The notes beneath the pieces were generated by a model. The model was not told where the DNA came from. It saw only the letters and a program-made list of their open reading frames with translations, and ran no database searches. Below are positions 750 through 23,852 of a stretch of 64,000 bases of DNA, in pieces. The position numbers and the translations under genes were made by a program. This stretch comes from Escherichia coli (GTDB lineage: Bacteria; Pseudomonadota; Gammaproteobacteria; Enterobacterales; Enterobacteriaceae), in assembly GCF_051903065.1 (NCBI RefSeq), contig NZ_CP178438.1; one strand, given 5' to 3'. The first letter of the stretch is position 1. Each line of letters opens with the position of its first letter.

Positions 750-1613
750 GTGTGGGCGCTAACTGCGGATGCGGATTTTCTGGCGCAGCGGGGGCAAGGA
801 CAGGTTGAACAGGTCTTTGCCAGAGCGGTAAATATCGCACTCCCGGCTCGCCAGCAGTTGCTGACGCTGCTTTGTGAAGAGTACGACAATGCGCCAAACA
901 GTTGTCGGTTGGCACTCACTCACTTTGATGGTCTGTTCCGGCATGGTGATAAGGTTCAGTTTGACGATCAAGGCATTACGGTTGGTCAACATCTTCATAT
1001 AGAGATGAGTCGTTGTCGGCGTTGGCTGTCCCCAACCTTGCAAATGACCGCTGTGAATTTTCACCTTATCGCCTGGCAACAGTGGCACGACATTATTCAT
1101 CAGCACTTGGGGGAAAATGAAACCCTGTTTAATTATCGCGGCGATAATCCGTTTTATCAGGCGTTAAATAAAGAATTACATATTAAACGACGGGCAGTTA
1201 TTCAGACAGTAAACGATAAGCAAAATATCGCCTCAGCGGTCACCAGTATGATTGGGTTAGGGATTGGCCTTACGCCATCAGCCGACGATTATTTAACAGG
1301 TCTGGCGCTTATTTTATTTATTCCCGGGCATCCGGCGGAAAAATACAAAGAGGAATTTTATCTCGGTCTGCAACGCGGCAGAAATAATACCACATTATTA
1401 AGTGCTATAACGCTGGAAGCCGCATTACAACAACGTTGCCGGGAAAATATTCATCGTTTTATTCACAACATTATTTATGACATCCCTGGGAACGCAACTC
1501 AGGCAATAGAAAAAATTAAACATATTGGCTCCAGTTCCGGCTGCGACATGCTGTATGGCATGGCCGATGGTTGTGCGCTGAGCCAAACCTACGGAGGGAA
1601 TTATGTCAGTTAA
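750..1613 (+). CDS. yahE: uncharacterised protein (DUF2877-type), 287 aa; exact start uncertain
   Basis: 287-aa ORF; stop overlaps start of next gene (1603..1613), suggesting translational coupling; synteny. Confidence 0.7.
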   Translation: MWALTADADFLAQRGQGQVEQVFARAVNIALPARQQLLTLLCEEYDNAPNSCRLALTHFDGLFRHGDKVQFDDQGITVGQHLHIEMSRCRRWLSPTLQMTAVNFHLIAWQQWHDIIHQHLGENETLFNYRGDNPFYQALNKELHIKRRAVIQTVNDKQNIASAVTSMIGLGIGLTPSADDYLTGLALILFIPGHPAEKYKEEFYLGLQRGRNNTTLLSAITLEAALQQRCRENIHRFIHNIIYDIPGNATQAIEKIKHIGSSSGCDMLYGMADGCALSQTYGGNYVS

Positions 1614-3150
1614 AATAGTCATTAAACCGAATACCTATTTTGATTCTGTCTCGCTGATGTCTATCTCCACGCGTGCAAATAAACTCGACGGCGTCGAGCA
1701 GGCATTTGTGGCGATGGCGACCGAAATGAATAAAGGCGTGCTGAAGAATTTAGGACTGCTGACGCCGGAGCTGGAGCAGGCGAAAAACGGCGACCTGATG
1801 ATTGTCATCAATGGTAAATCGGGTGCGGACAATGAGCAGTTGCTGGCGGAGATTGAAGAACTGTTCAACACCAAAGCGCAAAGCGGCTCGCACGAGGCGC
1901 GTTACGCCACTATTGCCAGCGCCAAAAAGCATATCCCGGAAAGTAACCTGGCGGTGATTTCGGTCAACGGTCTGTTTGCCGCTCGCGAAGCGCGTCAGGC
2001 GCTGCAAAACGATCTCAACGTGATGCTGTTTTCCGATAACGTCTCAGTTGAAGATGAACTGGCGCTCAAGCAACTGGCCCACGAAAAAGGGCTGCTGATG
2101 ATGGGGCCAGACTGCGGCACGGCGATTATCAACGGTGCGGCGCTCTGCTTTGGTAACGCCGTGCGTCGCGGCAACATCGGTATTGTTGGCGCATCCGGCA
2201 CCGGCAGCCAGGAGCTGAGCGTCCGCATTCATGAATTTGGTGGCGGCGTTTCACAACTGATTGGCACCGGCGGGCGCGACCTGAGCGAGAAAATCGGCGG
2301 CCTGATGATGCTCGACGCCATCGGGATGCTGGAAAACGATCCGCAAACTGAAATTATAGCGCTGATTTCAAAACCTCCCGCGCCTGCGGTGGCCCGTAAA
2401 GTGCTGGAACGCGCCCGCGCCTGCCGCAAGCCGGTGGTGGTCTGCTTCCTCGGTCGTGGCGAAACGCCAGTGGATGAGCAGGGGCTACAGTTTGCCCGCG
2501 GCACCAAAGAAGCGGCGCTGAAAGCGGTGATGCTCTCCGGCGTGAAACAGGAAAATCTCGACCTGCATACCCTGAACCAGCCGTTGATTGCGGATGTGCG
2601 TGCGCGTCTGCAACCGCAGCAGAAATACATTCGTGGCCTGTTCTGCGGCGGCACGTTGTGCGACGAAACCATGTTCGCGGTGATGGAAAAACATGGCGAT
2701 GTCTACAGCAACATTCAGCCCGATCCGGAATTCCGCCTGAAAGATATCAACCGCAGCATTAAACACACCTTCCTCGACTTTGGCGATGACGACTTCACCA
2801 ACGGCAAGCCGCACCCGATGATTGACCCCACCAACCGTATCAGCCGCTTGATCGAAGAAGCGCGCGATCCAGAAGTGGCGGTGATCGTGATGGATTTTGT
2901 GCTCGGATTTGGATCGCATGAAGATCCGGTCGGCTCCACCATCGAGGCGATCAAAGAAGCGAAAGCGATCGCCGCTGCCGAAGGACGCGAGTTGATCATT
3001 CTCGCCTATGTGCTGGGTACCGATCTTGATACGCCATCGTTAGAACAACAAAGCCAGATGCTGCTTGATGCCGGAGTGATTCTGGCGAGCAGCAGCACCA
3101 ATACCGGATTGCTGGCGCGTGAATTTATCTGCAAAGGGGAGGAAGCCTGA
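1603..3150 (+). CDS. yahF: FdrA-like / succinyl-CoA-synthetase-alpha-like CoA-binding protein, 515 aa
   Basis: 515-aa ORF with Gly-rich CoA/NAD-binding-like segments (GIVGASGTGSQE); overlaps yahE end and abuts yahG start. Confidence 0.8.
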   Translation: MSVKIVIKPNTYFDSVSLMSISTRANKLDGVEQAFVAMATEMNKGVLKNLGLLTPELEQAKNGDLMIVINGKSGADNEQLLAEIEELFNTKAQSGSHEARYATIASAKKHIPESNLAVISVNGLFAAREARQALQNDLNVMLFSDNVSVEDELALKQLAHEKGLLMMGPDCGTAIINGAALCFGNAVRRGNIGIVGASGTGSQELSVRIHEFGGGVSQLIGTGGRDLSEKIGGLMMLDAIGMLENDPQTEIIALISKPPAPAVARKVLERARACRKPVVVCFLGRGETPVDEQGLQFARGTKEAALKAVMLSGVKQENLDLHTLNQPLIADVRARLQPQQKYIRGLFCGGTLCDETMFAVMEKHGDVYSNIQPDPEFRLKDINRSIKHTFLDFGDDDFTNGKPHPMIDPTNRISRLIEEARDPEVAVIVMDFVLGFGSHEDPVGSTIEAIKEAKAIAAAEGRELIILAYVLGTDLDTPSLEQQSQMLLDAGVILASSSTNTGLLAREFICKGEEA

Positions 3151-4568
3151 TGAGCCAGTCACTGTTTAGCCAACCATTGAACGTTATTAACGTCGGCATC
3201 GCCATGTTTAGCGATGACCTGAAAAAGCAGCATGTAGAAGTGACTCAACTCGACTGGACGCCGCCGGGGCAGGGCAATATGCAGGTGGTGCAGGCGCTGG
3301 ATAACATTGCCGATTCGCCGCTGGCAGACAAAATCGCCGCCGCTAACCAGCAGGCGCTGGAGCGCATTATCCAGTCGCATCCGGTGCTGATTGGTTTTGA
3401 TCAGGCGATTAACGTGGTGCCGGGCATGACGCCGAAAACCATTCTTCACGCCGGGCCGCCGATCACCTGGGAAAAAATGTGCGGCGCGATGAAAGGCGCG
3501 GTCACCGGAGCGCTGGTGTTCGAAGGACTGGCGAAAGATCTCGACGAGGCGGCTGAACTGGCGGCTTCCGGGGAGATCACCTTCTCGCCGTGTCACGAGC
3601 ACGACTGCGTGGGATCGATGGCGGGTGTTACCTCGGCCTCGATGTTTATGCACATCGTAAAAAACAAAACCTACGGCAACATCGCTTATACCAACATGAG
3701 CGAGCAGATGGCGAAGATTTTGCGTATGGGCGCTAACGACCAGAGCGTGATTGACCGCCTGAACTGGATGCGTGATGTGCAGGGACCAATACTGCGCGAC
3801 GCGATGAAAATTATCGGCGAAATCGATCTGCGCTTAATGCTGGCGCAGGCGCTGCATATGGGCGATGAGTGCCATAACCGCAATAACGCCGGGACGACGC
3901 TGCTGATTCAGGCGCTGACGCCGGGGATTATCCAGGCGGGCTATTCCGTCGCGCAACAGCGCGAAGTGTTTGAGTTTGTCGCCAGCAGCGACTACTTCTC
4001 CGGCCCGACGTGGATGGCGATGTGTAAAGCGGCGATGGATGCGGCGCACGGCATCGAATACAGCACCGTGGTCACCACCATGGCGCGTAACGGCGTCGAG
4101 TTCGGCCTGCGGGTCAGCGGATTACCGGGGCAATGGTTTACCGGTCCGGCGCAGCAGGTCATCGGCCCGATGTTTGCCGGTTATAAGCCGGAAGATTCGG
4201 GGCTGGATATCGGCGATAGCGCCATCACAGAAACCTACGGTATTGGCGGGTTTGCTATGGCGACCGCACCCGCTATCGTCGCGCTGGTGGGCGGCACGGT
4301 GGAAGAGGCTATCGATTTCTCCCGTCAGATGCGCGAAATCACCCTTGGCGAAAACCCCAACGTCACCATTCCGCTGCTCGGTTTTATGGGCGTGCCATCG
4401 GCAATCGACATCACCCGCGTGGGTAGCAGCGGCATTCTGCCAGTGATCAACACCGCCATCGCCCATAAAGATGCGGGCGTCGGCATGATTGGCGCGGGCA
4501 TTGTGCATCCACCTTTTGCCTGCTTCGAGAAAGCCATTCTTGGCTGGTGCGAACGTTACGGCGTCTGA
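3150..4568 (+). CDS. yahG: uncharacterised protein (DUF1116-type), 472 aa
   Basis: 472-aa ORF, start codon overlaps yahF stop (3150); synteny. Confidence 0.8.
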   Translation: MSQSLFSQPLNVINVGIAMFSDDLKKQHVEVTQLDWTPPGQGNMQVVQALDNIADSPLADKIAAANQQALERIIQSHPVLIGFDQAINVVPGMTPKTILHAGPPITWEKMCGAMKGAVTGALVFEGLAKDLDEAAELAASGEITFSPCHEHDCVGSMAGVTSASMFMHIVKNKTYGNIAYTNMSEQMAKILRMGANDQSVIDRLNWMRDVQGPILRDAMKIIGEIDLRLMLAQALHMGDECHNRNNAGTTLLIQALTPGIIQAGYSVAQQREVFEFVASSDYFSGPTWMAMCKAAMDAAHGIEYSTVVTTMARNGVEFGLRVSGLPGQWFTGPAQQVIGPMFAGYKPEDSGLDIGDSAITETYGIGGFAMATAPAIVALVGGTVEEAIDFSRQMREITLGENPNVTIPLLGFMGVPSAIDITRVGSSGILPVINTAIAHKDAGVGMIGAGIVHPPFACFEKAILGWCERYGV

Positions 4569-4581
4569 CCTACATGTTCAT

Positions 4582-5035
4582 GCCGGATGCGGCGTGAACG
4601 CCTTATCCGGCCTACGAATGGCGCAAGAATCTGTAGGCCTGATAAGCGTAGCGCATCAGGCATTTGTCACCATTGCCGGATGCGGCGTGAACGCCTTATC
4701 CGGCCCACGAATGGCACGAGAATCTGTAGGCCTGATAAGCGTAGCGCATCAGGCATTTGTCACCATTGCCGGATGCGGCGTGAACGCCTTATCCGGCCTA
4801 CGAATGGCGCAAGAATTGTAGGCCTGATAAGCGTAGCGCATCAGGCATTTGTCACCATTGCCGGATGCGGCGTGAACGCCTTATCCGGCCCACGAATGGC
4901 ACGAGAATTTGTAGGCCTGATAAGCGTAGCGCATCAGGCATTTGTCACCATTGCCGGATGCGGCGTGAACGCCTTATCCGGCTTACGAGTGGCACGAGAA
5001 TTTGTAGGCCTGATAAGCGTAGCGCATCAGGCAAT
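4582..5035. repeat. REP/BIME tandem array (about 5 units, roughly 94-bp period)
   Basis: Repeated units GCCGGATGCGGCGTGAACGCCTTATCCGGCCTAC ... GTAGGCCTGATAAGCGTAGCGCATCAGGCA read directly; palindromic REP consensus; ORF-track hits inside are artefacts. Confidence 0.9.
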
Positions 5036-5082
5036 TTGGCGTTGGTCACAACCCCATCACCCTCTGTAGCGGACATAACAAC

Positions 5083-6033
5083 ATGAAAGAGCTTGTGGTC
5101 GTTGCCATTGGTGGCAACAGCATTATCAAAGATAACGCCAGCCAGTCGATTGAGCATCAGGCGGAGGCGGTGAAAGCCGTCGCCGATACGGTGCTGGAAA
5201 TGCTGGCTTCCGATTACGACATTGTGCTGACCCACGGTAACGGGCCGCAGGTCGGGCTGGATTTACGCCGTGCGGAGATTGCCCACGAGCGCGAAGGGCT
5301 GCCCTTAACGCCGCTGGCGAACTGTGTGGCGGATACGCAAGGCGGCATTGGCTATCTGATCCAACAGGCGCTGAACAACCGACTGGCGCGTCACGGCGAG
5401 AAAAAAGCCGTCACCGTGGTGACTCAGGTGGAAGTGGATAAAAACGATCCGGGATTTGCCCATCCCACCAAGCCCATCGGCGCATTCTTTAGTGACAGCC
5501 AGCGTGACGAATTACAAAAGGCAAACCCTGACTGGTGTTTTGTTGAAGATGCCGGGCGGGGCTATCGCCGCGTAGTCGCTTCGCCGGAACCGAAACGTAT
5601 TGTCGAAGCACCGGCCATTAAGGCGCTGATCCAACAAGGCTTTGTCGTAATTGGCGCGGGCGGCGGTGGAATTCCTGTGGTGCGTACTGACGCGGGAGAT
5701 TACCAAAGCGTGGACGCGGTTATCGACAAAGATCTCTCTACCGCGCTGCTGGCCCGTGAAATTCACGCCGACATTCTGGTGATCACCACCGGGGTGGAAA
5801 AAGTGTGTATTCATTTTGGCAAACCCGAGCAGCAGGCGCTGGATCGCGTAGATATTGCCACCATGACTCGCTATATGCAGGAAGGGCATTTCCCGCCCGG
5901 CAGCATGTTGCCAAAAATCATCGCCAGCCTGACGTTCCTGGAACAGGGCGGCAAAGAAGTGATTATCACCACGCCGGAATGCCTGCCTGCGGCGCTGCGC
6001 GGTGAAACGGGCACCCATATTATTAAAACGTAA
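5083..6033 (+). CDS. yahI: carbamate kinase-like protein, 316 aa
   Basis: 316-aa ORF with amino-acid-kinase-family features (VVAIGGNSI N-terminus, C-terminal GG-rich segment); synteny. Confidence 0.85.
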   Translation: MKELVVVAIGGNSIIKDNASQSIEHQAEAVKAVADTVLEMLASDYDIVLTHGNGPQVGLDLRRAEIAHEREGLPLTPLANCVADTQGGIGYLIQQALNNRLARHGEKKAVTVVTQVEVDKNDPGFAHPTKPIGAFFSDSQRDELQKANPDWCFVEDAGRGYRRVVASPEPKRIVEAPAIKALIQQGFVVIGAGGGGIPVVRTDAGDYQSVDAVIDKDLSTALLAREIHADILVITTGVEKVCIHFGKPEQQALDRVDIATMTRYMQEGHFPPGSMLPKIIASLTFLEQGGKEVIITTPECLPAALRGETGTHIIKT

Positions 6034-6042
6034 GGACGTAAG

Positions 6043-7425
6043 ATGAAAGAAAATAATAGCCGCCGTGAATTTCTGAGCCAGAGCGGTAAGATGGTCACCG
6101 CCGCCGCGCTGTTTGGTACCTCTGTGCCGCTCGCCCATGCGGCAGTCTCTGGCACAACCCACTGCGACGCGAATAACGCCATGAAAATCACTGACCCGCA
6201 CTACTATCTCGACAACGTGCTGCTGGAAACTGGATTTGACTACGAAAATGGCGTGGCGGTTCAGACCCGCACGGCGCGCCAGACCGTGGAGATTCAGAAC
6301 GGCAAAATTGTCGCGCTGCGCGAGAATAAGCAGCACCCGGATGCCACGCTTCCGCACTATGATGCTGGCGGTAAGCTGATGTTGCCCACCACCCGCGACA
6401 TGCATATTCATCTCGATAAAACCTTTTACGGCGGGCCGTGGCGCTCGCTTAATCGCCCGGCAGGCACCACCATCCAGGATATGATTAAGCTCGAGCAAAA
6501 AATGCTGCCGGAGCTGCAACCCTACACCCAGGAACGGGCGGAAAAACTGATCGATCTATTGCAGTCGAAAGGCACCACCATTGCCCGCAGTCACTGCAAT
6601 ATCGAACCGGTTTCCGGCCTGAAAAATCTGCAAAATTTGCAGGCGGTGCTGGCGCGACGTCAGGCGGGCTTTGAGTGTGAAATCGTCGCCTTCCCGCAGC
6701 ACGGTTTGCTGCTGTCGAAATCGGAACCCTTAATGCGTGAAGCAATGCAGGCGGGTGCGCATTACGTCGGCGGGCTGGACCCGACCAGTGTCGATGGCGC
6801 GATGGAAAAATCCCTCGACACCATGTTCCAGATTGCGCTGGACTACGACAAAGGCGTCGATATTCACCTGCACGAAACCACTCCGTCGGGCGTGGCAGCC
6901 ATCAATTATATGGTTGAAACGGTAGAGAAAACGCCTCAACTGAAAGGTAAGCTGACCATCAGCCACGCCTTTGCGCTGGCTACGCTCAACGAGCAACAGG
7001 TAGATGAACTGGCGCATCGCATGGCGGCGCAGCAAATTTCTATCGCCTCGACGGTGCCGATTGGCACGCTGCATATGCCGCTCAAACAGTTGCACGACAA
7101 AGGCGTAAAAGTGATGACCGGCACCGACAGCGTTATCGACCACTGGTCGCCTTATGGTCTGGGCGACATGCTGGAAAAAGCCAATCTGTACGCGCAGCTC
7201 TATATTCGTCCTAACGAACAGAACCTCTCCCGTTCGCTGTTTCTAGCCACTGGCGATGTATTGCCGCTGAATGAAAAAGGCGAGCGTGTATGGCCAAAAG
7301 CGCAGGATGACGCCAGCTTTGTGCTGGTGGACGCCTCCTGTTCCGCCGAAGCGGTGGCGCGTATCTCGCCGAGAACCGCAACGTTCCATAAAGGGCAACT
7401 GGTGTGGGGGAGTGTGGCAGGTTGA
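6043..7425 (+). CDS. yahJ: amidohydrolase/deaminase-family protein with twin-arginine (Tat) signal peptide, 460 aa
   Basis: N-terminus MKENNSRREFLSQSGKMVTAAALFGTSVPLAHAA contains an S-R-R-x-F-L Tat motif followed by a hydrophobic stretch and AxA cleavage site; metal-dependent hydrolase-like HxH segment (DMHIHLD). Confidence 0.85.
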   Translation: MKENNSRREFLSQSGKMVTAAALFGTSVPLAHAAVSGTTHCDANNAMKITDPHYYLDNVLLETGFDYENGVAVQTRTARQTVEIQNGKIVALRENKQHPDATLPHYDAGGKLMLPTTRDMHIHLDKTFYGGPWRSLNRPAGTTIQDMIKLEQKMLPELQPYTQERAEKLIDLLQSKGTTIARSHCNIEPVSGLKNLQNLQAVLARRQAGFECEIVAFPQHGLLLSKSEPLMREAMQAGAHYVGGLDPTSVDGAMEKSLDTMFQIALDYDKGVDIHLHETTPSGVAAINYMVETVEKTPQLKGKLTISHAFALATLNEQQVDELAHRMAAQQISIASTVPIGTLHMPLKQLHDKGVKVMTGTDSVIDHWSPYGLGDMLEKANLYAQLYIRPNEQNLSRSLFLATGDVLPLNEKGERVWPKAQDDASFVLVDASCSAEAVARISPRTATFHKGQLVWGSVAG

Positions 7426-7801
7426 TGCGCATTTGAAACGCCTGCAACGGTGAATAGTAAGAGATTTAAGCCCCAGGGAGTGGGGCAATCTGAATATGAG
7501 TGTGTCGGCAGAAATGGACATTATCTTTGAGGAATATGCCCTTATTGACGTTGTGTAGATAACTATTTGTCTACGTGAAAAGATCATCAGTTTTGCCGAT
7601 TTTAGTCTTTTACGGATAGCAAATATCACACTTATAGGCGCTCGCCTTATGGGGAACGTTGCTGCTTTGTTTCATTCAGGCTCGCGGCATGTTGGGGCTG
7701 GATCGGGTGGTTTAAATATTGGCTATATTCAATGGACGCGTTTTGCCGCGATGACATATCAGGCGTCGCCAAATACACATAGCTAATCAGGAGTAAACAC
7801 A

Positions 7802-8851
7802 ATGAAGATCAAAGCTGTTGGTGCATATTCCGCTAAACAACCACTTGAACCGATGGATATCACCCGGCGTGAACCGGGACCGAATGATGTCAAAATCGAA
7901 ATCGCTTACTGTGGCGTCTGCCATTCCGATCTCCACCAGGTCCGTTCCGAGTGGGCGGGGACGGTTTACCCCTGCGTACCGGGTCATGAAATTGTGGGGC
8001 GTGTGGTAGCCGTTGGTGATCAGGTAGAAAAACATGCGCCGGGCGATCTGGTCGGTGTCGGCTGCATTGTCGACAGTTGTAAACATTGCGAAGAGTGTGA
8101 AGACGGGCTGGAAAACTACTGTGATCACATGACCGGCACCTATAACTCGCCGACGCCGGACGAACCGGGCCATACGCTGGGCGGCTACTCACAACAGATC
8201 GTCGTTCATGAGCGATATGTTCTGCGTATTCGTCACCCGCAAGAGCAGCTGGCAGCGGTGGCTCCTTTGTTGTGTGCAGGGATCACCACGTACTCGCCGC
8301 TACGTCACTGGCAGGCCGGGCCGGGTAAAAAAGTGGGCGTGGTCGGCATCGGCGGTCTGGGACATATGGGGATTAAGCTGGCCCACGCGATGGGGGCACA
8401 TGTGGTGGCATTTACCACTTCTGAGGCAAAACGCGAAGCGGCAAAAGCCCTGGGGGCCGATGAAGTTGTTAACTCACGCAATGCCGATGAGATGGCGGCT
8501 CATCTGAAGAGTTTCGATTTCATTTTGAATACAGTAGCTGCGCCACATAATCTCGACGATTTTACCACCTTGCTGAAGCGTGATGGCACCATGACGCTGG
8601 TTGGTGCGCCTGCGACACCGCATAAATCGCCGGAAGTTTTCAACCTGATCATGAAACGCCGTGCGATAGCCGGTTCTATGATTGGCGGCATTCCAGAAAC
8701 TCAGGAGATGCTCGATTTTTGCGCCGAACATGGCATCGTGGCTGATATAGAGATGATTCGGGCCGATCAAATTAATGAAGCCTATGAGCGAATGCTGCGT
8801 GGTGATGTGAAATATCGTTTTGTTATCGATAATCGCACACTAACAGACTGA
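7802..8851 (+). CDS. yahK: Zn-dependent NADPH aldehyde reductase (medium-chain dehydrogenase), 349 aa
   Basis: GVCHSDLH and GHEIVGRV zinc-ADH motifs, GxGxxG Rossmann segment (GVVGIGGLGHMG). Confidence 0.9.
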   Translation: MKIKAVGAYSAKQPLEPMDITRREPGPNDVKIEIAYCGVCHSDLHQVRSEWAGTVYPCVPGHEIVGRVVAVGDQVEKHAPGDLVGVGCIVDSCKHCEECEDGLENYCDHMTGTYNSPTPDEPGHTLGGYSQQIVVHERYVLRIRHPQEQLAAVAPLLCAGITTYSPLRHWQAGPGKKVGVVGIGGLGHMGIKLAHAMGAHVVAFTTSEAKREAAKALGADEVVNSRNADEMAAHLKSFDFILNTVAAPHNLDDFTTLLKRDGTMTLVGAPATPHKSPEVFNLIMKRRAIAGSMIGGIPETQEMLDFCAEHGIVADIEMIRADQINEAYERMLRGDVKYRFVIDNRTLTD

Positions 8852-8890
8852 AAAAATTAATAAATACCCTGTGATTTAACATATTAACTT

Positions 8891-8924
8891 CGCTCTCCAC
8901 TTAACTTTTTAGTTAAGGAGAGCG
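8891..8924 (+). terminator. stem-loop downstream of yahK (possible terminator)
   Basis: CGCTCTCC-ac-TTAACT-tttt-AGTTAA-GGAGAGCG inverted repeat 40 bp after the yahK stop; no clean T-tract, so intrinsic-terminator status is uncertain. Confidence 0.4.
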
Positions 8925-9093
8925 AAATAATATCAAAGTAGCAGTAAAACCTATAACGTAAATTCAAATTGTTAAATTAACTCCCTCCAGTACACAATAC
9001 TTCTCACGTTAGTTATGAGCGATTTCTGATAGTGCCTGGTTTAATTAGAGCTTTATTATCTGCGACGTTTATTTTTATTTAAGAGAGATCGCG

Positions 9094-9909
9094 ATGATAT
9101 CATTAAAAGCTCCGCGCAATAATTTGATGCCATATACGCAACAAAGCATACTTAATACGGTTAAAAACAATCAGTTACCAGAGGATATCAAAAGCTCCCT
9201 GGTTTCCTGTGTCGATATATTCAAGGTTTTGATTAAACAATATTATGATTATCCTTATGATTGTCGTGATGATTTAGTCGATGACGACAAACTCATTCAT
9301 CTCATGGCTGCCGTACGAGACTGTGAGTGGTCAGACGATAACGCACTCACCATAAATGTGCAGTTTAATGATTTCCCTGGATTTTATGACTGGATGGATT
9401 ACCCTGATCACCCGGTTAAGTTTGTTTTTCGCATACTTGAAAATCAAAAAGGGACAGTTTGGGTATATGACCAGGATGATGCGTTTCTTGATATTAAAGC
9501 AAATGTGCAGGCTGGACGCTTTACCGGGCTTAAGAAATTAGTGCAGTTTATCAATTCAGTGCGAACAGATTGCAAATGTATTCTTCTTGAACACCATATG
9601 CCTTTGCTGAGACTTTTCCCTAAAGGGAAAGAATGTATGCATGTGGAAAAATGGCTTCGCGAAATGTCGTCTATTCCAGAGACAGACGCGCCCATTAAGC
9701 AGGCGCTTGCGCATGGATTATTATTACACTTAAAAAATATCTACCCTGTTTTTCCTGAATCACTGGTGATGTTATTGCTCTCTGTTCTGGACGTAAAAAC
9801 ATACAGAGATGATGCGCGATTAAATGAATGGATATCTAATAGAGTGCAGGAATTAGGTGACAGATATTATCCTGTAAATAAGCACGTTAAAATCCGCTAC
9901 ACTCTTTAG
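9094..9909 (+). CDS. yahL: uncharacterised protein, 271 aa, AT-rich gene
   Basis: 271-aa ORF in a visibly AT-rich segment flanked by AT-rich intergenic DNA; no recognisable catalytic motif. Confidence 0.65.
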   Translation: MISLKAPRNNLMPYTQQSILNTVKNNQLPEDIKSSLVSCVDIFKVLIKQYYDYPYDCRDDLVDDDKLIHLMAAVRDCEWSDDNALTINVQFNDFPGFYDWMDYPDHPVKFVFRILENQKGTVWVYDQDDAFLDIKANVQAGRFTGLKKLVQFINSVRTDCKCILLEHHMPLLRLFPKGKECMHVEKWLREMSSIPETDAPIKQALAHGLLLHLKNIYPVFPESLVMLLLSVLDVKTYRDDARLNEWISNRVQELGDRYYPVNKHVKIRYTL

Positions 9910-10321
9910 TTCAGAAAGGGTTCCACCTGAAAGTTGTTATTCCACCAGAGAGTGAATGGCAATGCAGGTAATCATTTCATCTGTATATCTGTATGCCAAC
10001 TGGCATTCCATCTCTTTTTTCGCCGATATTTTGTTGTGATCGGCGACACTTCGCTTAAAAAAGCACCAGCAGTGGTTTCGCAGCTATGCGGTGTATAAAA
10101 AATGATCTCATGCAGATGTTTTGTGAATGTGTGGGTTGACATTCATATGAAAAAAATCATAATTCCATCATGTTTGTGTGGGGTCTTTTCTGTATCTTAC
10201 GCATCGCACTCAAGCCTGACAGAAAATATGCTGTAAGGCTCATATCAAAAACCGCCATTAGCTCATCAGGAAGAGCAGACGACAACCAGGATTGTTGTAT
10301 GGTACGGGGTTCGAGGCCTCG

Positions 10322-10567
10322 ATGGCGGTCCAACTTTTCAAAACTCTTCTGAATCAGATCCCCTTATTATCATCCCTGCAAAGTGGAACATTGCCATTGT
10401 TTGGCTATTCAGGACGGGTCAGACCAATGAAAAAAGCCCACACAGGGGAGAGTGGGCTGAAATGGGAAGCTAAAGACTCAAGTAAACTTATCGGAAATAA
10501 GGACCACGCATTACGGGGGCTATCATCGCCGATGGTCGGGATTCGGCAAATCAGGTTGATTACGTAG
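10322..10567 (+). CDS. yahM: small uncharacterised protein, 81 aa (start taken at MAVQLF)
   Basis: ORF 10292..10567; an internal ATG gives an 81-aa product matching the remembered size of yahM; weak support. Confidence 0.4.
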   Translation: MAVQLFKTLLNQIPLLSSLQSGTLPLFGYSGRVRPMKKAHTGESGLKWEAKDSSKLIGNKDHALRGLSSPMVGIRQIRLIT

Positions 10568-10583
10568 AGAGTAAATTATCTGC

Positions 10584-11255
10584 TCACCGCTGCGTCACCC
10601 CTTCGTAAATCAGGCGTAGCGCGAATACACCAATAATTGCACCAATAACCCGACTGGCAACGCGTTGCATACGCCCATAAGCACGACGCACAGCGGGCAA
10701 AGAAAACGCCTGACTAAGAAAAACTCGCCAGATAATTGATGCGAGCACAATCCCCGCCCAGGCCATTAAACGTGCCCATGTTGGTGTTTCGGCATTTAAT
10801 GTTACTGAGAAAATACTGATAAAAAATAAAACGGTTTGCGGGTTAGAGAGATCGGTAATTAATCCACGGCGAAAAAAGACATACCAGGGGGCGCTAATCG
10901 GTTGTTGTAGTGTGCTCATTTGCGGTGTTGACTGGCGGCGCATGCTGCACCACGCAAACCATAAGAGATAAGCGCCGCCGACGATTCTGATAAGCGAGAA
11001 AATCTCCTCACACTGCGTAATTAGCGTTGCAAGACCAAACAAACCCAATCCGGAATAAAATGCATCGCCCAGCGCCACGCCCAGCCCGGTCAGCACCCCT
11101 GCGCGTCGACCGGAAGCCAGGCTGGTTTGTACTACCACAAAGAGATTGGCTCCCGGATTAAAAAAAGTAATCACGAACAGTCCTACGGTCAGGTAAACGG
11201 CATGCAAAGGATCCATAGTGATTTCATCCATAAATAAGTGAACTAACTGCATCAT
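10584..11255 (-). CDS. yahN: LysE/RhtB-family amino-acid exporter, 223 aa
   Basis: Hydrophobic multi-helix protein of LysE-family length; synteny. Confidence 0.8.
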   Translation of the reverse strand: MMQLVHLFMDEITMDPLHAVYLTVGLFVITFFNPGANLFVVVQTSLASGRRAGVLTGLGVALGDAFYSGLGLFGLATLITQCEEIFSLIRIVGGAYLLWFAWCSMRRQSTPQMSTLQQPISAPWYVFFRRGLITDLSNPQTVLFFISIFSVTLNAETPTWARLMAWAGIVLASIIWRVFLSQAFSLPAVRRAYGRMQRVASRVIGAIIGVFALRLIYEGVTQR

Positions 11256-11401
11256 ATTTCTACCAAAAATAATCGGGTGCGAGAGAGATCACAAAGTGTC
11301 TTATTTCCGGTTACTGGCGTTTATGCCCTGACTGAACTAATTATTAATCAACCCAATAATGTGGGTGGGTGATAGTGTGATAACAACTCTGGAGCCGTAA
11401 T

Positions 11402-11677
11402 ATGAAAATAATCTCTAAAATGTTAGTCGGTGCGTTGGCGTTTGCCGTTACCAATGTCTATGCCGCTGAATTGATGACTAAAGCGGAATTTGAAAAAGTC
11501 GAATCGCAATATGAAAAAATAGGTGATATTTCAACCAGCAATGAAATGTCGACCGCAGACGCGAAAGAGGATTTGATCAAAAAAGCGGATGAAAAAGGGG
11601 CTGATGTGTTGGTACTGACCTCCGGTCAAACTGACAATAAGATCCACGGCACGGCGGATATTTATAAGAAGAAGTAA
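11402..11677 (+). CDS. yahO: small periplasmic protein (DUF1471/YhcN-like), 91 aa
   Basis: Signal peptide [22 protein letters not shown] followed by a short soluble domain. Confidence 0.8.
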
Positions 11678-11706
11678 TTCTGAACCCTATGTAAACATCC
11701 CCGATG

Positions 11707-12763
11707 GGCTTTGTTGAATAAATCGAACTTTTGCTGAGTTGAAGGATCAGATCACGTATCTTCCCGACAACGCAGACCGTTCCGTGGCAAAGCAAAAGTT
11801 CAAAATCACCAACTGGCCCACCTACAATAAAGCCCTCATCAACCGTGGCTCCATAACTTTCTGGCTGGATGATGAAGCTATTCAGGCCTGGTATGAGTCA
11901 GCAACACCTTCTTCACGAGGCAGACCTCAGCGCTATTCTGACCTTGCCATCACGACTGTGCTGGTCATTAAACGCGTATTCAGGCTGACCCTGCGCGCTG
12001 CGCAGGGCTTTATTGATTCCATTTTTTCTCTGATGAACGTTCCGCTACGCTGCCCGGATTACAGCTGTGTCAGCAGGCGGGCAAAGTCGGTTAATGTCAG
12101 TTTCAAAACGCCCACCCGGGGTGAAATCGCACACCTGGTAATTGATTCCACCGGGCTGAAGGTCTTCGGTGAAGGCGAGTGGAAAGTCAAAAAGCATGGC
12201 CAGGAACGCCGCCGTATCTGGCGTAAGCTGCATCTCGCCGTTGACAGTAAAACACATGAAATCATCTGCGCTGACCTGTCGCTGAACAACGTTACGGACT
12301 CAGAGGCCTTCCCCGGGTTAATCCGGCAAACCCACCGGAAAATCAGGTCAGCCGCCGCCGATGGCGCTTACGATACCCGGCTATGTCACGATGAACTGCG
12401 GCGTAAGAAAATCAGCGCGCTTATCCCTCCCCGAAAAGGTGCGGGTTACTGGCCCGGTGAATATGCAGACCGTAACCGTGCAGTGGCTAATCAGCGAATG
12501 ACCGGGAGTAATGCGCGGTGGAAATGGACAACAGATTACAACCGTCGCTCGATAGCGGAAACGGCGATGTACCGGGTAAAACAGCTGTTCGGGGGTTCAC
12601 TGACACTGCGTGACTACGATGGTCAGGTTGCAGAGGCTATGGCCCTGGTACGAGCGCTGAACAAAATGACGAAAGCAGGTATGCCTGAAAGCGTGCGTAT
12701 TGCCTGAAAACACAACCCGCTACGGGGGAGACTTACCCGAAATCTGATTTATTCAACAAAGCC
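11707..12763 (+). mobile_element. IS903-type insertion sequence (IS5 family), 1057 bp, intact
   Basis: 18-bp terminal inverted repeats GGCTTTGTTGAATAAATC (11707..11724) and its reverse complement (12746..12763); flanked by perfect 9-bp direct repeats TCCCCGATG (11698..11706 and 12764..12772); length 1057 bp matches IS903. Confidence 0.9.
11784..12707 (+). CDS. IS903 transposase (about 307 aa if GTG start at 11784; ORF open from 11739)
   Basis: Single long ORF filling the element; left-end DNA matches the remembered Tn903/IS903 end sequence; 307-aa size expected for IS903 transposase. Confidence 0.85.
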   Translation: MAKQKFKITNWPTYNKALINRGSITFWLDDEAIQAWYESATPSSRGRPQRYSDLAITTVLVIKRVFRLTLRAAQGFIDSIFSLMNVPLRCPDYSCVSRRAKSVNVSFKTPTRGEIAHLVIDSTGLKVFGEGEWKVKKHGQERRRIWRKLHLAVDSKTHEIICADLSLNNVTDSEAFPGLIRQTHRKIRSAAADGAYDTRLCHDELRRKKISALIPPRKGAGYWPGEYADRNRAVANQRMTGSNARWKWTTDYNRRSIAETAMYRVKQLFGGSLTLRDYDGQVAEAMALVRALNKMTKAGMPESVRIA

Positions 12764-12840
12764 TCCCCGATGCGTAAGTTTATCGGTGATCATCTATTGA
12801 AATTTATGCCGGATAAAGCGTTCGCGCTGCATTCGGCAGT

Positions 12841-14427: not shown

Positions 14428-14613
14428 AGCGCACCGCAAAGTTAAGAAACCGAATATTGGGTTTAGTCTTGTTTCATAATTGTTGCAATGAAACGCGGTG
14501 AAACATTGCCTGAAACGTTAACTGAAACGCATATTTGCGGATTAGTTCATGACTTTATCTCTAACAAATTGAAATTAAAGATTTAATTTTATTAAGGCAA
14601 TTGTGGCACACCC

Positions 14614-14629
14614 CTTGCTTTGTGTTTAT
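14614..14629 (+). promoter_or_regulatory. candidate sigma-54 (-24/-12) promoter of prpBCDE
   Basis: TGGCAC-accccTTGCt matches the TGGCAC-N5-TTGCW consensus, about 40 bp upstream of prpB and divergent from the sigma54 activator prpR. Confidence 0.65.
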
Positions 14630-14665
14630 CAACGCAAATAACAAGTTGATAACAAAGGATGGGCT

Positions 14666-15556
14666 ATGTCTCTACACTCCCCAGGTAAAGTGTTTCGCGC
14701 TGCACTGACTAAAGAAAATCCATTGCAGATTGTTGGCACCATTAACGCCAACCATGCGCTGTTGGCGCAGCGTGCCGGATATCAGGCAATTTATCTCTCC
14801 GGCGGTGGCGTGGCGGCAGGGTCGCTGGGGCTGCCCGATCTCGGTATTTCTACCCTTGATGATGTGCTGACCGACATTCGCCGTATCACCGACGTTTGTT
14901 CGCTGCCGCTGCTGGTGGATGCGGATATCGGTTTTGGTTCTTCGGCCTTTAACGTGGCGCGCACCGTGAAATCGATGATTAAAGCTGGTGCGGCAGGATT
15001 GCATATTGAAGATCAGGTTGGTGCGAAACGCTGCGGTCATCGTCCGAATAAAGCGATCGTCTCGAAAGAGGAGATGGTGGATCGGATCCGCGCGGCGGTG
15101 GATGCGAAAACCGATCCTGATTTTGTGATCATGGCGCGCACCGATGCGCTGGCGGTAGAGGGGCTGGATGCGGCGATCGAGCGTGCGCAGGCCTATGTTG
15201 AAGCGGGTGCCGAGATGTTGTTCCCGGAGGCGATTACCGAACTCGCCATGTACCGCCAGTTTGCCGATGCGGTGCAGGTGCCGATCCTCGCCAATATTAC
15301 CGAATTTGGTGCCACGCCGCTGTTTACCACCGACGAATTACGCAGCGCCCATGTCGCAATGGCGCTGTACCCGCTTTCAGCGTTCCGCGCCATGAACCGC
15401 GCCGCTGAACATGTCTACAACGTCCTGCGCCAGGAAGGCACGCAGAAAAGCGTCATCGACACCATGCAAACCCGCAACGAGCTGTACGAAAGCATCAACT
15501 ACTACCAGTACGAAGAGAAGCTCGACGACCTGTTTGCCCGTAACCAGGTGAAATAA
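14666..15556 (+). CDS. prpB: 2-methylisocitrate lyase, 296 aa
   Basis: PEP-mutase/isocitrate-lyase-family protein, correct size and position in the prp operon. Confidence 0.9.
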
Positions 15557-15571: not shown

Positions 15572-15868
15572 TGTATTCGACAACCGATGCCTGATGCGCC
15601 GCTGACGCGACTTATCAGGCCTACGGGGTGTACTGAACTGTAGGTCGGATAAGACGCATGGCGTCGCATCCGACAACCGATGCCTGATGCGTCGCTGACG
15701 CGACTTATCAGGCCTACGGGGTGAACTGAACTGTAGGTCGGATAAGACGCATGGCGTCGCATCCGACAACCGATGCCTGATGCGCCGCTGACGCGGCTTA
15801 TCAGGCCTACGGGGTGTACTGAACTGTAGGTCGGATAAGACGCATGGCGTCGCATCCGACAACAATCT
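15572..15868. repeat. REP/BIME tandem array (3 units, about 92-bp period)
   Basis: Three near-identical units ...GATGCCTGATGCGCCGCTGACGCGACTTATCAGGCCTACGGGGTG-ACTGAACTGTAGGTCGGATAAGACGCATGGCGTCGCATCCGACAAC. Confidence 0.9.
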
Positions 15869-15902: not shown

Positions 15903-17072
15903 ATGAGCGACACAACGATCCTGCAAAACAGTACCCATGTCATTAAACCGAAAAAATCTGTGGCGCTTTCTGGCGTTCCGGCGGGCAATACGGCGCTCTG
16001 CACCGTGGGTAAAAGTGGCAATGACTTGCATTACCGTGGCTACGATATTCTTGATCTGGCGGAACATTGCGAATTTGAAGAAGTGGCGCATCTGCTGATC
16101 CACGGCAAACTGCCGACCCGTGACGAACTCGCCGCCTACAAAACAAAACTGAAAGCCCTGCGCGGTTTACCGGCTAACGTACGTACCGTGCTGGAAGCCT
16201 TACCGGCGGCGTCACACCCGATGGATGTTATGCGCACCGGCGTTTCCGCGCTCGGCTGCACGCTGCCAGAAAAAGAGGGGCATACCGTCTCTGGCGCGCG
16301 GGATATTGCCGACAAACTGCTGGCATCACTTAGCTCGATTCTCCTTTATTGGTATCACTACAGCCATAACGGCGAACGTATCCAGCCGGAAACCGATGAC
16401 GACTCCATCGGCGGTCACTTCCTGCATCTGCTGCATGGCGAAAAGCCATCGCAAAGCTGGGAAAAGGCGATGCATATTTCGCTGGTGCTGTACGCCGAAC
16501 ATGAGTTTAACGCCTCCACCTTTACCAGCCGGGTGATTGCAGGCACCGGCTCTGATATGTATTCCGCGATTATTGGCGCGATTGGCGCACTACGCGGGCC
16601 AAAACACGGCGGGGCGAATGAAGTGTCGCTGGAGATCCAGCAACGCTACGAAACGCCGGACGAAGCCGAAGCAGATATCCGCAAGCGGGTGGAAAACAAA
16701 GAAGTGGTCATTGGTTTTGGTCATCCGGTTTATACCATCGCCGACCCGCGTCATCAGGTGATTAAACGTGTGGCCAAGCAGCTCTCGCAGGAAGGCGGCT
16801 CGCTGAAGATGTACAACATCGCCGATCGCCTGGAAACGGTGATGTGGGAGAGCAAAAAGATGTTCCCCAATCTCGACTGGTTCTCCGCTGTTTCCTACAA
16901 CATGATGGGCGTTCCCACCGAGATGTTCACACCACTGTTTGTTATCGCTCGCGTCACCGGCTGGGCGGCGCACATTATCGAACAACGTCAGGACAACAAA
17001 ATTATCCGTCCTTCCGCCAATTATGTTGGACCGGAAGACCGCCAGTTTGTCGCGCTGGATAAGCGCCAGTAA
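15903..17072 (+). CDS. prpC: 2-methylcitrate synthase, 389 aa
   Basis: Citrate-synthase-family protein; prp operon context. Confidence 0.9.
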
Positions 17073-18596: not shown

Positions 18597-20483
18597 ATGT
18601 CTTTTAGCGAATTTTATCAGCGTTCGATTAACGAACCGGAGCAGTTCTGGGCCGAGCAGGCCCGGCGTATTGACTGGCAGACGCCCTTTACGCAAACGCT
18701 CGATCACAGCAATCCGCCGTTTGCCCGTTGGTTTTGTGAAGGCCGAACCAACTTGTGCCACAACGCTATCGACCGCTGGCTGGAGAAACAACCAGAGGCG
18801 CTGGCGCTGATTGCCGTCTCTTCGGAAACAGAAGAAGAGCGCACCTTTACCTTTCGCCAGCTGCATGACGAAGTGAACGCGGTGGCGTCAATGCTGCGCT
18901 CGCTGGGCGTGCAGCGTGGCGATCGGGTGCTGGTGTATATGCCGATGATTGCCGAAGCGCATATTACCCTGCTGGCCTGCGCGCGCATTGGCGCTATTCA
19001 CTCGGTGGTGTTTGGTGGATTTGCCTCGCACAGCGTGGCGGCGCGAATTGATGATGCTAAACCGGTGCTGATTGTCTCGGCTGATGCCGGAGCGCGCGGT
19101 GGCAAAATCATTCCCTATAAAAAATTGCTCGACGATGCGATAAGTCAGGCGCAGCACCAGCCACGCCATGTTTTGCTGGTGGATCGCGGGCTGGCGAAAA
19201 TGGCGCGCGTCAGCGGGCGGGATGTCGATTTCGCGTCGTTGCGCCATCAACACATCGGCGCGCGGGTACCGGTGGCGTGGCTGGAATCCAACGAAACCTC
19301 CTGCATTCTCTACACCTCCGGCACGACCGGCAAACCTAAAGGCGTGCAGCGTGACGTCGGCGGATATGCGGTGGCGCTGGCGACCTCGATGGACACCATT
19401 TTTGGCGGCAAAGCGGGCGGTGTGTTCTTTTGTGCTTCGGATATCGGCTGGGTGGTGGGGCATTCGTATATCGTCTACGCGCCGCTGCTGGCGGGGATGG
19501 CGACTATCGTTTACGAAGGATTACCGACCTGGCCGGACTGCGGCGTGTGGTGGAAAATCGTCGAGAAATATCAGGTTAGCCGGATGTTCTCAGCGCCGAC
19601 CGCCATTCGCGTGCTGAAAAAATTCCCTACCGCTGAAATTCGCAAACACGATCTTTCGTCGCTGGAAGTTCTCTATCTGGCGGGGGAGCCGCTGGACGAG
19701 CCGACCGCCAGTTGGGTGAGCAATACGCTGGATGTGCCGGTCATCGACAACTACTGGCAGACCGAATCCGGCTGGCCGATTATGGCGATTGCTCGCGGTC
19801 TGGACGACAGGCCGACGCGTCTGGGAAGCCCCGGCGTGCCGATGTATGGCTATAACGTGCAGTTGCTTAATGAAGTCACCGGCGAACCGTGTGGCGTTAA
19901 CGAGAAAGGGATGCTGGTGGTGGAAGGGCCGCTGCCGCCGGGGTGTATTCAGACCATCTGGGGCGACGACGACCGCTTTGTGAAGACGTACTGGTCGCTG
20001 TTTTCCCGCCCGGTGTACGCCACCTTTGACTGGGGCATCCGCGATGCTGACGGTTATTACTTTATTCTCGGGCGCACTGACGATGTAATTAACGTTGCCG
20101 GGCATCGGCTGGGGACGCGCGAGATTGAAGAGAGTATCTCCAGTCATCCGGGCGTTGCCGAAGTGGCGGTGGTTGGGGTGAAAGATGCGCTGAAAGGGCA
20201 GGTGGCGGTGGCGTTTGTCATTCCGAAAGAGAGCGACAGTCTGGAAGATCGTGATGTGGCGCATTCGCAAGAGAAGGCGATTATGGCGCTGGTGGACAGC
20301 CAGATTGGCAACTTTGGCCGCCCGGCGCACGTCTGGTTTGTCTCGCAATTGCCAAAAACGCGATCCGGAAAAATGCTGCGCCGCACGATCCAGGCGATTT
20401 GCGAAGGACGCGATCCTGGGGATCTGACGACCATTGATGATCCTGCGTCGTTGGATCAGATCCGCCAGGCGATGGAAGAGTAA
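18597..20483 (+). CDS. prpE: propionyl-CoA synthetase, 628 aa
   Basis: Acyl-CoA synthetase AMP-binding motif (YTSGTTGKPKG). Confidence 0.9.
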   Translation: MSFSEFYQRSINEPEQFWAEQARRIDWQTPFTQTLDHSNPPFARWFCEGRTNLCHNAIDRWLEKQPEALALIAVSSETEEERTFTFRQLHDEVNAVASMLRSLGVQRGDRVLVYMPMIAEAHITLLACARIGAIHSVVFGGFASHSVAARIDDAKPVLIVSADAGARGGKIIPYKKLLDDAISQAQHQPRHVLLVDRGLAKMARVSGRDVDFASLRHQHIGARVPVAWLESNETSCILYTSGTTGKPKGVQRDVGGYAVALATSMDTIFGGKAGGVFFCASDIGWVVGHSYIVYAPLLAGMATIVYEGLPTWPDCGVWWKIVEKYQVSRMFSAPTAIRVLKKFPTAEIRKHDLSSLEVLYLAGEPLDEPTASWVSNTLDVPVIDNYWQTESGWPIMAIARGLDDRPTRLGSPGVPMYGYNVQLLNEVTGEPCGVNEKGMLVVEGPLPPGCIQTIWGDDDRFVKTYWSLFSRPVYATFDWGIRDADGYYFILGRTDDVINVAGHRLGTREIEESISSHPGVAEVAVVGVKDALKGQVAVAFVIPKESDSLEDRDVAHSQEKAIMALVDSQIGNFGRPAHVWFVSQLPKTRSGKMLRRTIQAICEGRDPGDLTTIDDPASLDQIRQAMEE

Positions 20484-21128: not shown

Positions 21129-21281
21129 CCCACTGTTTTTACACCGATAATTTTTCCCCCACCTTTTTGCACTCATTCATATAAAAAATATATTTCCCCA
21201 CGAAAACGATTGCTTTTTATCTTCAGATGAATAGAATGCGGCGGATTTTTTGGGTTTCAAACAGCAAAAAGGGGGAATTTC

Positions 21282-22541
21282 GTGTCGCAAGATAACAACT
21301 TTAGCCAGGGGCCAGTCCCGCAGTCGGCGCGGAAAGGGGTATTGGCATTGACGTTCGTCATGCTGGGATTAACCTTCTTTTCCGCCAGTATGTGGACTGG
21401 CGGCACTCTCGGAACCGGTCTTAGCTATCATGATTTCTTCCTCGCAGTTCTCATCGGCAATCTTCTCCTCGGTATTTACACTTCATTTCTCGGTTACATT
21501 GGCGCAAAAACCGGCCTGACCACTCATCTTCTTGCTCGCTTCTCGTTTGGTGTTAAAGGCTCATGGCTGCCTTCACTGCTGCTGGGCGGCACCCAGGTTG
21601 GCTGGTTTGGCGTTGGCGTGGCGATGTTTGCCATTCCGGTGGGTAAGGCAACCGGGCTGGATATTAATTTGCTGATTGCCGTTTCCGGTTTACTGATGAC
21701 CGTCACCGTCTTCTTTGGCATTTCGGCGCTGACAGTTCTTTCGGTGATTGCGGTTCCGGCGATCGCCTGTCTTGGCGGTTATTCCGTGTGGCTGGCCGTT
21801 AACGGCATGGGCGGCCTGGACGCCTTAAAAGCGGTCGTTCCCGCACAACCATTAGATTTCAATGTCGCGCTGGCGCTGGTTGTGGGGTCATTTATCAGCG
21901 CGGGTACGCTCACCGCTGACTTTGTCCGCTTTGGTCGCAATGCCAAACTGGCGGTGCTGGTGGCGATGGTGGCCTTTTTCCTCGGCAACTCGTTGATGTT
22001 TATTTTCGGTGCAGCGGGAGCGGCGGCACTGGGGTTGGCGGATATCTCTGATGTGATGATTGCTCAGGGCCTGCTGCTGCCTGCGATTGTGGTGCTGGGA
22101 CTGAATATCTGGACCACCAACGATAACGCGCTCTATGCGTCGGGTTTAGGTTTCGCCAACATTACCGGTATGTCGAGCAAAACCCTTTCGGTAATCAACG
22201 GTATTATCGGTACGGTCTGCGCATTATGGCTGTATAACAATTTTGTCGGCTGGTTGACCTTCCTTTCGGCAGCTATTCCTCCGGTGGGTGGCGTGATCAT
22301 TGCCGACTATCTGATGAACCGTCGCCGCTATGAGCACTTTGCGACCACGCGTATGATGAGTGTCAATTGGGTGGCGATTCTGGCGGTCGCCTTGGGGATT
22401 GCTGCAGGCCACTGGTTACCGGGAATTGTTCCGGTCAACGCGGTATTAGGTGGCGCGCTGAGCTATCTGATCCTTAACCCGATTTTGAATCGTAAAACGA
22501 CAGCAGCAATGACGCATGTGGAGGCTAACAGTGTCGAATAA
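21282..22541 (+). CDS. codB: cytosine permease, 419 aa (GTG start)
   Basis: NCS1-family multi-TM transporter; GTG start preceded by AAAAAGGGGGA Shine-Dalgarno; overlaps codA. Confidence 0.9.
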
Positions 22542-23814: not shown

Positions 23815-23852
23815 TCGGCTGGGCTGTGTGTTGACAAAGCGAGCGTAGTTTA

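Follow-up and report, generated by a model that had tools for sequence, protein, structure and literature searches.

The five tandem repeats that lie between yahG and yahI in Escherichia coli make up a real but ordinary REP/BIME array. This is the REP23/yahH element, and it is likely to fill the scar of a deleted permease gene and, by analogy with REP325, to act as a barrier to mRNA decay and an attenuator of transcription. The locus is already known as REP23, or the old "yahH", in K-12, and five repeats have been described in EHEC EDL933 (PMC4765031, PMC11551758). The stretch of DNA that was analysed, referred to here as the window, is 64,000 nt long and holds two more tandem BIME arrays. What is added here is the class of the array (atypical, with z1 units), a census of its unit number from 0 to 6, an orientation opposite to that of REP325, and its position at the site of a lost permease gene. 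The initial annotation of this DNA contained neither the earlier descriptions of the locus, nor the identity of the Z unit as z1 and not z2, nor the lost permease gene.

Two sets of co-directional genes flank the array. They are encoded as follows:

750..3150, plus strand: yahE (AllH family) and yahF (FdrA/AllF family), matching PF11392 and NF004760
3150..4568, plus strand: yahG, AllG-family subunit, upstream of the array (PF06545, 297 bits; RefSeq annotation)
5083..6033, plus strand: yahI, carbamate kinase family, downstream of the array (NF009007, 650 bits)
6043..7425, plus strand: yahJ, amidohydrolase (NF005312, 717 bits)

The LysR gene yahB is adjacent to the operon. AllFGH, an oxamate carbamoyltransferase of three subunits, releases carbamoyl phosphate (PMC11326118), and YbcF/AllK is a catabolic carbamate kinase that uses carbamoyl phosphate (PMC9843812). 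Because of the family memberships of YahE/F/G, YahI, and YahJ, the yah cluster is, as judged from sequence, a paralogous set of carbamoyltransferase, kinase, and amidohydrolase. The allFGH and ybcF papers make no mention of the yah paralogues. The initial annotation had proposed that the two co-directional gene sets are functionally linked, and this is borne out by the combination of AllH, AllF, and AllG families with a carbamate kinase and by the compact operon that these genes form in other genera.

The array occupies 458 nt of the plus strand (window 4581-5038), between the yahG stop codon (4566-4568) and the yahI start (5083). Tandem Repeats Finder reported a period of 93 with 4.9 copies, 95% matches, and a score of 830; a super-period of 185 nt gave a better fit (97%). 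The five REP-pair units first recognized at 4582-5035 are therefore confirmed, with coordinates that differ by at most 3 nt from the limits set by the repeat finder. The array is composed of five head-to-tail units of 92-93 nt, and a direct-repeat finder gave start-to-start spacings of 93, 93, 92, and 93 nt. Each unit pairs a y palindromic unit with a z1 palindromic unit in inverted orientation. On the plus strand, a unit begins with y in the head-to-tail direction (GCCGGATGCGGCGTGAACGCCTTATCCGGCCTAC), followed by a tail-to-tail linker of 16-17 nt (GAATGGCRCRAGAAT..), z1 in the tail-to-head direction (GTAGGCCTGATAAGCGTAGCGCATCAGGC), and a head-to-head linker of 12-13 nt (ATTTGTCACCATT). Pattern searches located the 31-nt y core at 4582, 4675, 4768, 4860, and 4953, in strict alternation with the 29-nt z1 unit at 4633, 4726, 4818, 4911, and 5004. 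In 100 shuffles of the window, neither y nor z1 was matched. The parts of the array are:

4582..4615, plus strand: y unit 1, from head to CTAC; exact match to the y core, with a stem that begins 13 nt past the yahG stop
4633..4661, plus strand: z1 unit 1, from GTAG to head, 29 nt; exact match
4675..4708, plus strand: y unit 2, with the tail variant CCCAC
4726..4754, plus strand: z1 unit 2, pattern match
4768..4801, plus strand: y unit 3, pattern match
4818..4846, plus strand: z1 unit 3, preceded by a linker of 16 and not 17 nt, which gives a 92-nt unit and a shift of reading frame
4860..4893, plus strand: y unit 4, with the tail variant CCCAC, as in unit 2
4911..4939, plus strand: z1 unit 4, pattern match
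4953..4986, plus strand: y unit 5, with one mismatch to the core and the tail CTTAC
5004..5032, plus strand: z1 unit 5, pattern match
5039..5082, plus strand: unique leader 5' of yahI, conserved and common to all E. coli alleles, the 0-unit allele included

Consensus scans found no sigma-70-like promoter and no intrinsic terminator (a hairpin followed by a U-tract) in or beside the array. The IHF core motif WATCAANNNNTTR was not found on either strand of the array.

All ten units are imperfect palindromes of 29-37 nt with the GTAG/CTAC foot that characterizes REPs, and in some y units CCTAC is replaced by the tail variants CCCAC or CTTAC. The predicted y and z1 folds have a 2-nt internal loop at GATAAG/CGCATC, which corresponds to the conserved AA-GC mismatch bulge of the REP stem (PMC8266576). 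Across the five repeats, the units alternate in orientation and are joined by short conserved linkers. They are also extragenic and present in high copy, with 36 palindromic units in the 64-kb window and a median of at least 23 matched places per genome. The published unit lengths are 35 nt for y, 29 nt for z1, and 37 nt for z2 (PMC8266576), and the Z unit is assigned to z1 because it is 29 nt long. A z2 (BIME-2) label for this unit was ruled out, as the z2 of REP325 is 7 nt longer and the published z2 measures 37 nt.

By definition, BIME-1 has one y-z1 pair and a long L linker that binds IHF, BIME-2 is composed of tandem y-z2 pairs, and all other forms are atypical (PMC3333891, PMC1187871). 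The array has the y and z1 composition of BIME-1 (the RIB/RIP elements), but BIME-1 is single copy and its long L linker carries an IHF site. A BIME-1 identity was ruled out by the five pairs, the 17-nt linkers, and the missing IHF core motif. The array and BIME-2 of the Bachellier/Gilson classification are both tandem, with alternating orientation, short linkers, and length polymorphism among strains (0-6 units for the array), but BIME-2 uses z2 where the array uses z1. Because BIME-1 and BIME-2 are both excluded by definition, the array is an atypical BIME that has the geometry of BIME-2, z1 in place of z2, and no IHF linker.

Over the locus, the window is a 100% match to E. coli ECNB21-M121. 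The stretch from yahI to prpB (window about 6000-14666) is 1,066 nt longer than in this otherwise identical record, and the window is thus not strictly collinear with ECNB21-M121. In K-12, 'yahH' (b0322) is annotated within the array, and Moore et al. 2024 wrote of 'yahH (filled with REP23 sites)' (PMC11551758). Neuhaus et al. 2016 described the locus in EHEC EDL933 as ORF X002, which they equated with yahH. They reported five repeat blocks, of which the fourth is missing one base and so changes the frame, and a sense transcription of X002 in EHEC at an RNA-seq RPKM of 88. The same work suggested an operon yahDEFGIJ (PMC4765031). REP23/yahH of K-12 and EDL933 (EcoCyc REP23) is the same locus and the same y-z1 unit as the array of the window. 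EDL933 and O157:H7 TT12B have five units, one of them of 92 nt, as does the window, whereas K-12 has four. The window allele differs from REP23/yahH in the order of its linker variants, which stems from a duplication of a two-unit block. Units 1-2 of the window resemble units 3-4, which accounts for the 185-nt period, and the latest expansion of the window allele was therefore such a duplication.

Tandem BIMEs are documented to vary in length among isolates (PMC1187871, PMC3333891), and the number of units at this locus ranges from 0 to 6 across E. coli. Alleles of 0-5 units were fetched, and the 6-unit allele is in NZ_OZ282453. Examples are:

0 units: S1-JOR-02-A
1 unit: 03_3469; ST131
2 units: GPEC464
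3 units: OW1E2
4 units: K-12
5 units: the window; O157:H7
6 units: NZ_OZ282453

A census was made on 60 evenly spaced rows of the 5,586 matching records. The commonest allele has one unit (23 rows), followed by four units (14 rows) and no unit (6 rows). Five units occurred in 4 rows, two units in 3, and three units in 2, and one row was interrupted by IS621. In the rest of the rows, the locus was absent or partial; the 6-unit allele of NZ_OZ282453, which was partly matched, is among them. The exact allele of the window was found in only 3 records among those searched. The initial annotation had proposed a comparison of unit number among strains, and this comparison shows that the number is not identical in all of them.

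The z1 unit is invariant in every unit of all strains examined, and the y unit is nearly so. Variation between units is found mostly in the tail-to-tail linker of 16-17 nt, where it occurs in mosaic combinations. Several 3-unit records labelled K-12 (CP010441-5, AG100, GM4792, KLY; NZ_CP010445.1) lack exactly unit 3 of NC_000913.3, which has four units. This difference may be a real change on a laboratory time scale or an assembly collapse of the repeat. Units are presumably gained and lost through unequal recombination or replication slippage between units, and TnpA-REP, the REP-associated transposase, is a possible helper.

Other rearrangements were found at the same spacer. In strain 13C1079T (NZ_CP019267.1, at about 835-2120 of the extracted locus L091), the IS110-like element IS621 is inserted at the GTAG|GCC foot of z1 in a 1-unit allele. 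This insertion site is consistent with the known REP targeting of this IS. In E. albertii NBRC 107761 (locus L012, about 5010-5110), the spacer carries a tandem duplication whose repeat consists of the last ~50 nt of yahG, the stop codon, the left flank, and y-z1. The duplication reaches into yahG, and unequal exchange is therefore not confined to the REP sequence. The suggestion that the array is a recombination hotspot holds in the sense of an unstable array, as seen in its 0-6 units, the IS621 insertion, and the duplication in E. albertii.

The 0-unit allele of S1-JOR-02-A (locus L008, 1070-1164) has an unrelated spacer of 95 nt with a CCCTTCTCCC/GGGGAGAGGG hairpin. This hairpin, of the CCCTCTCCC/GGGAGAGGG type, resembles the CCCTCTCCC..GGGAGAGGG..GGGTGAGGG elements that lie beside yahI in Enterobacter, Yokenella, Kluyvera, and Klebsiella. 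It is possibly an older occupant of the spacer.

In other species, the position of the array is often taken by a gene. A YahG scan with one genome per species gave 80 loci at 86-99% amino-acid identity, and in 59 of these a gene for a multi-pass membrane protein of ~516 aa (516-520 aa) is located between yahG and yahI. This permease-like gene begins 11 nt past yahG and ends about 26 nt before yahI in Enterobacter, Buttiauxella, Trabulsiella, and others, where the operon is thus compact. Neither Pfam nor NCBIfam gave a match for the protein, and 'xanthine permease' or 'AGZA family' are only the names given by the source records. Examples of the gene, and of a second cluster that includes it, are:

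Citrobacter youngae, locus L030, 5037-6587: permease-like gene
Providencia rettgeri, locus L081, 5175-6737: permease-like gene
E. coli TUM1886 plasmid pMTY1886_IncF, NZ_CP128971.1, 41769-57319 (locus L090): second yah-like cluster

The second yah-like cluster, permease included, was found in 142 of 5,426 E. coli genomes (about 2.6%), mostly on IncF plasmids. It is composed of a LysR regulator, ankyrin, DUF2877, fdrA, DUF1116, permease, and carbamate kinase, with IS remnants at its flanks.

The permease-less loci are those of Escherichia, Pseudocitrobacter, Kluyvera, Citrobacter amalonaticus, Klebsiella spallanzanii, Raoultella, and one strain labelled Enterobacter sp. They group as one clade, nested among the permease-bearing loci, in a YahG+YahI neighbour-joining tree built without bootstrap. 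Their spacers are 79-315 nt long and hold differing, lineage-specific palindromes, and the y-z1 element is already present in E. albertii and E. whittamii. Most other Enterobacterales have the permease at this site, and the loci without it fall in one clade. The array is therefore best seen as a secondary coloniser of a spacer left by one ancient loss of a transporter gene, and not as a device that evolved to split the pathway.

The RNA of the array is predicted to be highly structured. Its sense strand has a minimum free energy of -239 kcal/mol (z = -7.2 against shuffles), with predicted hairpins of -21.3 kcal/mol for y and -11.5 kcal/mol for z1. In an alternative predicted fold, y and z1 pair in one long hairpin of -36 to -40 kcal/mol per unit. 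The intercistronic REPs at malE-malF and hisJ-hisQ shield the upstream message from 3' exonucleases, and expression of the distal gene is relatively lower. Those REPs lie within operons, as the array does, but they comprise one or two hairpins and the array comprises ten, in a number that varies among strains.

REP325, in the yjdM-yjdN operon (naRNA1-6; PMC4550694), is nearer in form. REP325 and the array both consist of tandem y and Z pairs between co-directional genes of one operon, here ten hairpins between yahG and yahI, and their linkers are alike, at about 12 nt head-to-head and about 17 nt tail-to-tail. They differ in that REP325 has 12 hairpins, z2, and a 100-nt period, while the array has 10 hairpins, z1, and a 93-nt period, and the two are in opposite orientation relative to transcription. 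REP325 is the only such array that has been tested in depth, and it is a partial Rho-dependent terminator and a stabiliser of the upstream mRNA. Its deletion changed the yjdM/yjdN ratio from 35 to 1. REP325 gave a ladder of truncated transcripts and was partly Rho-dependent only in full, with no such dependence for 2-4 hairpins. Genome-wide, tandem gene pairs separated by REPs show a bias toward the upstream gene, with wide scatter and strong context dependence (bioRxiv 10.64898/2026.03.23.713779). The supplements of this 2026 preprint and of the 2015 mBio paper contain no usable expression or Rho values for yahG, yahI, or REP23.

By analogy with REP325, the array probably acts on the yah operon as an mRNA-decay barrier and a weak transcription attenuator, favouring yahDEFG over yahIJ. 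Once transcribed, the ten hairpins would form a barrier to 3'-to-5' exonucleases and would also serve as a leaky attenuator. The yahDEFG message would then outlast or outnumber the yahIJ message, and the effect would grow with unit number. The partial terminator raised in the initial annotation is plausible on the same analogy. Translation of an upstream gene can be lowered by REPs at less than 16 nt from its stop codon (PMC12306157). The first hairpin of the window begins within this range, 13 nt past the yahG stop (23 nt in B2-type alleles), and it may also hinder the termination of YahG translation. Caution is called for by the orientation of the array, inverted with respect to REP325, and by its G-rich sense strand, whose C/G of 0.88, compared with 1.23 for REP325, would be unfavourable for Rho loading. 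A large array is dispensable, since the commonest alleles have one or zero units.

The strongest alternative is that the array is a neutral passenger, a selfish or slippage-prone repeat whose unit number drifts in a tolerant spacer. This is possible, though clearly less probable than an effect on expression. It would account for the existence of all alleles from 0 to 6 units with one unit as the commonest, for the unrelated, lineage-specific palindromes that occupy the spacer in other genera, and for the two further tandem arrays within 64 kb, and it fits with REP effects that depend on context and vary widely. However, some influence on decay would be expected of ten stable hairpins that are transcribed between two cistrons, and REP325, the closest studied array, shifts the ratio of its neighbouring genes about 35-fold.

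A role mainly in the DNA itself, whether in gyrase binding or in the topological insulation of one transcription unit from another, is unlikely. According to the summaries in PMC2817692 and PMC3333891, gyrase binding and cleavage have been reported for BIME-2 and atypical BIMEs, and the insulation of transcription-induced supercoiling has been attributed to REPs. The array, however, is located within one operon and has no divergent or convergent units around it, and the strains with 0 units do not need it.

The remaining alternatives concern transcripts and reading frames of the repeat itself. Three ORFs (4489..4821, 4587..5069, and 4865..5086) are present inside or overlapping the array, and one of them spans it:

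4587..5069, plus strand: array-spanning ORF of 160 aa, counterpart of EHEC X002/yahH

The 93-nt unit has five stop triplets, all of them in the same plus-strand frame. Two plus-strand frames are open because 93 nt equals 31 codons and the stops share one frame, and no minus-strand frame is free of stops. The chance that the stop triplets share a frame, for four independent positions, is about 4%, which is not compelling. ORF length follows the allele, from 30 aa with 1 unit to 123-141 aa in K-12, 160 aa in the window, and 175 aa as annotated with 6 units, and the ORF is not conserved in length, frame, or sequence over this range of 30-175 aa. The X002 protein given in the supplement of PMC4765031 is identical to a 154-aa ORF from an O157:H7 genome. 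The initial annotation had regarded the three ORFs as artefacts of the repeat. Their length tracks the number of units, two frames are open, and conservation is absent, all of which largely bears out that view, but it is contested by ribosome footprints from EHEC (PMC4765031).

These frames allow for a more elaborate proposal, which is very unlikely: that the number of units and their 92- or 93-nt lengths form a heritable, reversible setting on the operon. Unit lengths would decide whether a single ORF bridges the spacer, beginning just past the yahG stop and ending 14 nt short of the yahI start. Ribosomes that translate this ORF would open the hairpins and obstruct Rho, so that yahIJ would be expressed where the bridge is intact and uncoupled where it is broken. 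If this were true, strains would differ in the stoichiometry of the carbamoyltransferase-like complex and the carbamate kinase.

That YahH is a real protein made from the array-spanning ORF 4587..5069 is highly doubtful. The ribosome footprints on X002 (465 nt, EDL933) amount to an RPKM of 56, a coverage of 0.61, and a ribosomal coverage value of 0.64 (PMC4765031), and RefSeq still annotates 'protein YahH' in many genomes. Against this, the ORF shrinks from 160 aa at 5 units to 30 aa at 1 unit and switches frame at each 92-nt unit. No such ORF is present in the 0-unit allele, and the commonest 1-unit alleles have only ORFs of 30-66 aa. PGAP divides the region differently in nearly every strain, and neither YahH nor the other internal ORFs match a Pfam or NCBIfam family at cutoff. 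The footprints might also be mimicked, as repeat-derived reads cannot be mapped to one place and stable hairpins may withstand nuclease. Table 1 of PMC4765031 lists no mass-spectrometry peptide for X002. The footprint data of PMC4765031 may still leave room for ribosomes to enter the array. Such entry would matter, since Rho attenuation by BIMEs is said to be lost under translation (Espeli et al. 2001, as cited in PMC4765031). Attenuation would accordingly be suppressed here if PMC4765031 is right that the array-spanning ORF is translated.

It is extremely improbable that the array gives rise to nucleoid-associated RNAs like naRNA4, which would condense the chromosome with HU, the role behind the original model (PMC4550694). 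The four Rfam RF02564 matches (76-78 bits, minus strand, window 4636-4983; gathering score 59.5) reflect only y-linker-Z REP homology, and the z2 of naRNA4 exceeds the z1 here by 7 nt. The strand that scores best runs antisense to the operon, with no promoter-like site found there. In the 2026 study (bioRxiv 10.64898/2026.03.23.713779), REP325/naRNA4 showed no measurable nucleoid compaction and no stable HU-DNA-RNA complex. Matches on the plus strand scored 52-54 bits, below the gathering score. An identity as naRNA4 genes was ruled out by the REP homology, the antisense strand, and the shorter Z hairpin. RF02564 is an annotation trap at this locus, where automated pipelines would call four sRNA genes antisense to the operon.

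The window holds other REP elements, among them two further tandem arrays:

15578-15863: second tandem BIME array, 3.1 x 93 nt, of z2 type with a divergent partner unit
20508-21129: largest tandem BIME array of the window, 6.6 x 94 nt, with 13 palindromic units (z2 and a y variant)

The former is inside the prpBCDE operon, between prpB (14666..15556) and prpC (15903..17072), and the latter lies between prpE (18597..20483) and codB (21282..22541). A single-copy y-z1 pair is found just past codA (window 23848-23938), with a tail-to-tail spacing of 16 nt, as in the array unit. It is possibly the un-amplified form of the element type that makes up the array. At 27330-27393, a truncated y (catgccggatgcggc...) is followed by a z1 with one mismatch, and together they resemble a decayed y-z1 pair.

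These results bear on annotation, on the yah pathway, and on the study of REP arrays. Depending on the pipeline and the strain, the same 458 nt are called 'protein YahH', one or two 'hypothetical proteins', or four naRNA4 genes, and none of these names is well founded. Caution is needed in assigning a substrate to yahEFG-yahIJ, as the transporter that most relatives, and some E. coli IncF plasmids, carry with these genes is absent from the chromosomal cluster of E. coli. The array is one more tandem BIME within an operon, and such arrays are now thought to tune the expression of neighbouring genes while the coding sequence stays unchanged. The natural series of 0-6 units at one locus would be a handy test of whether this tuning scales with the number of hairpins.
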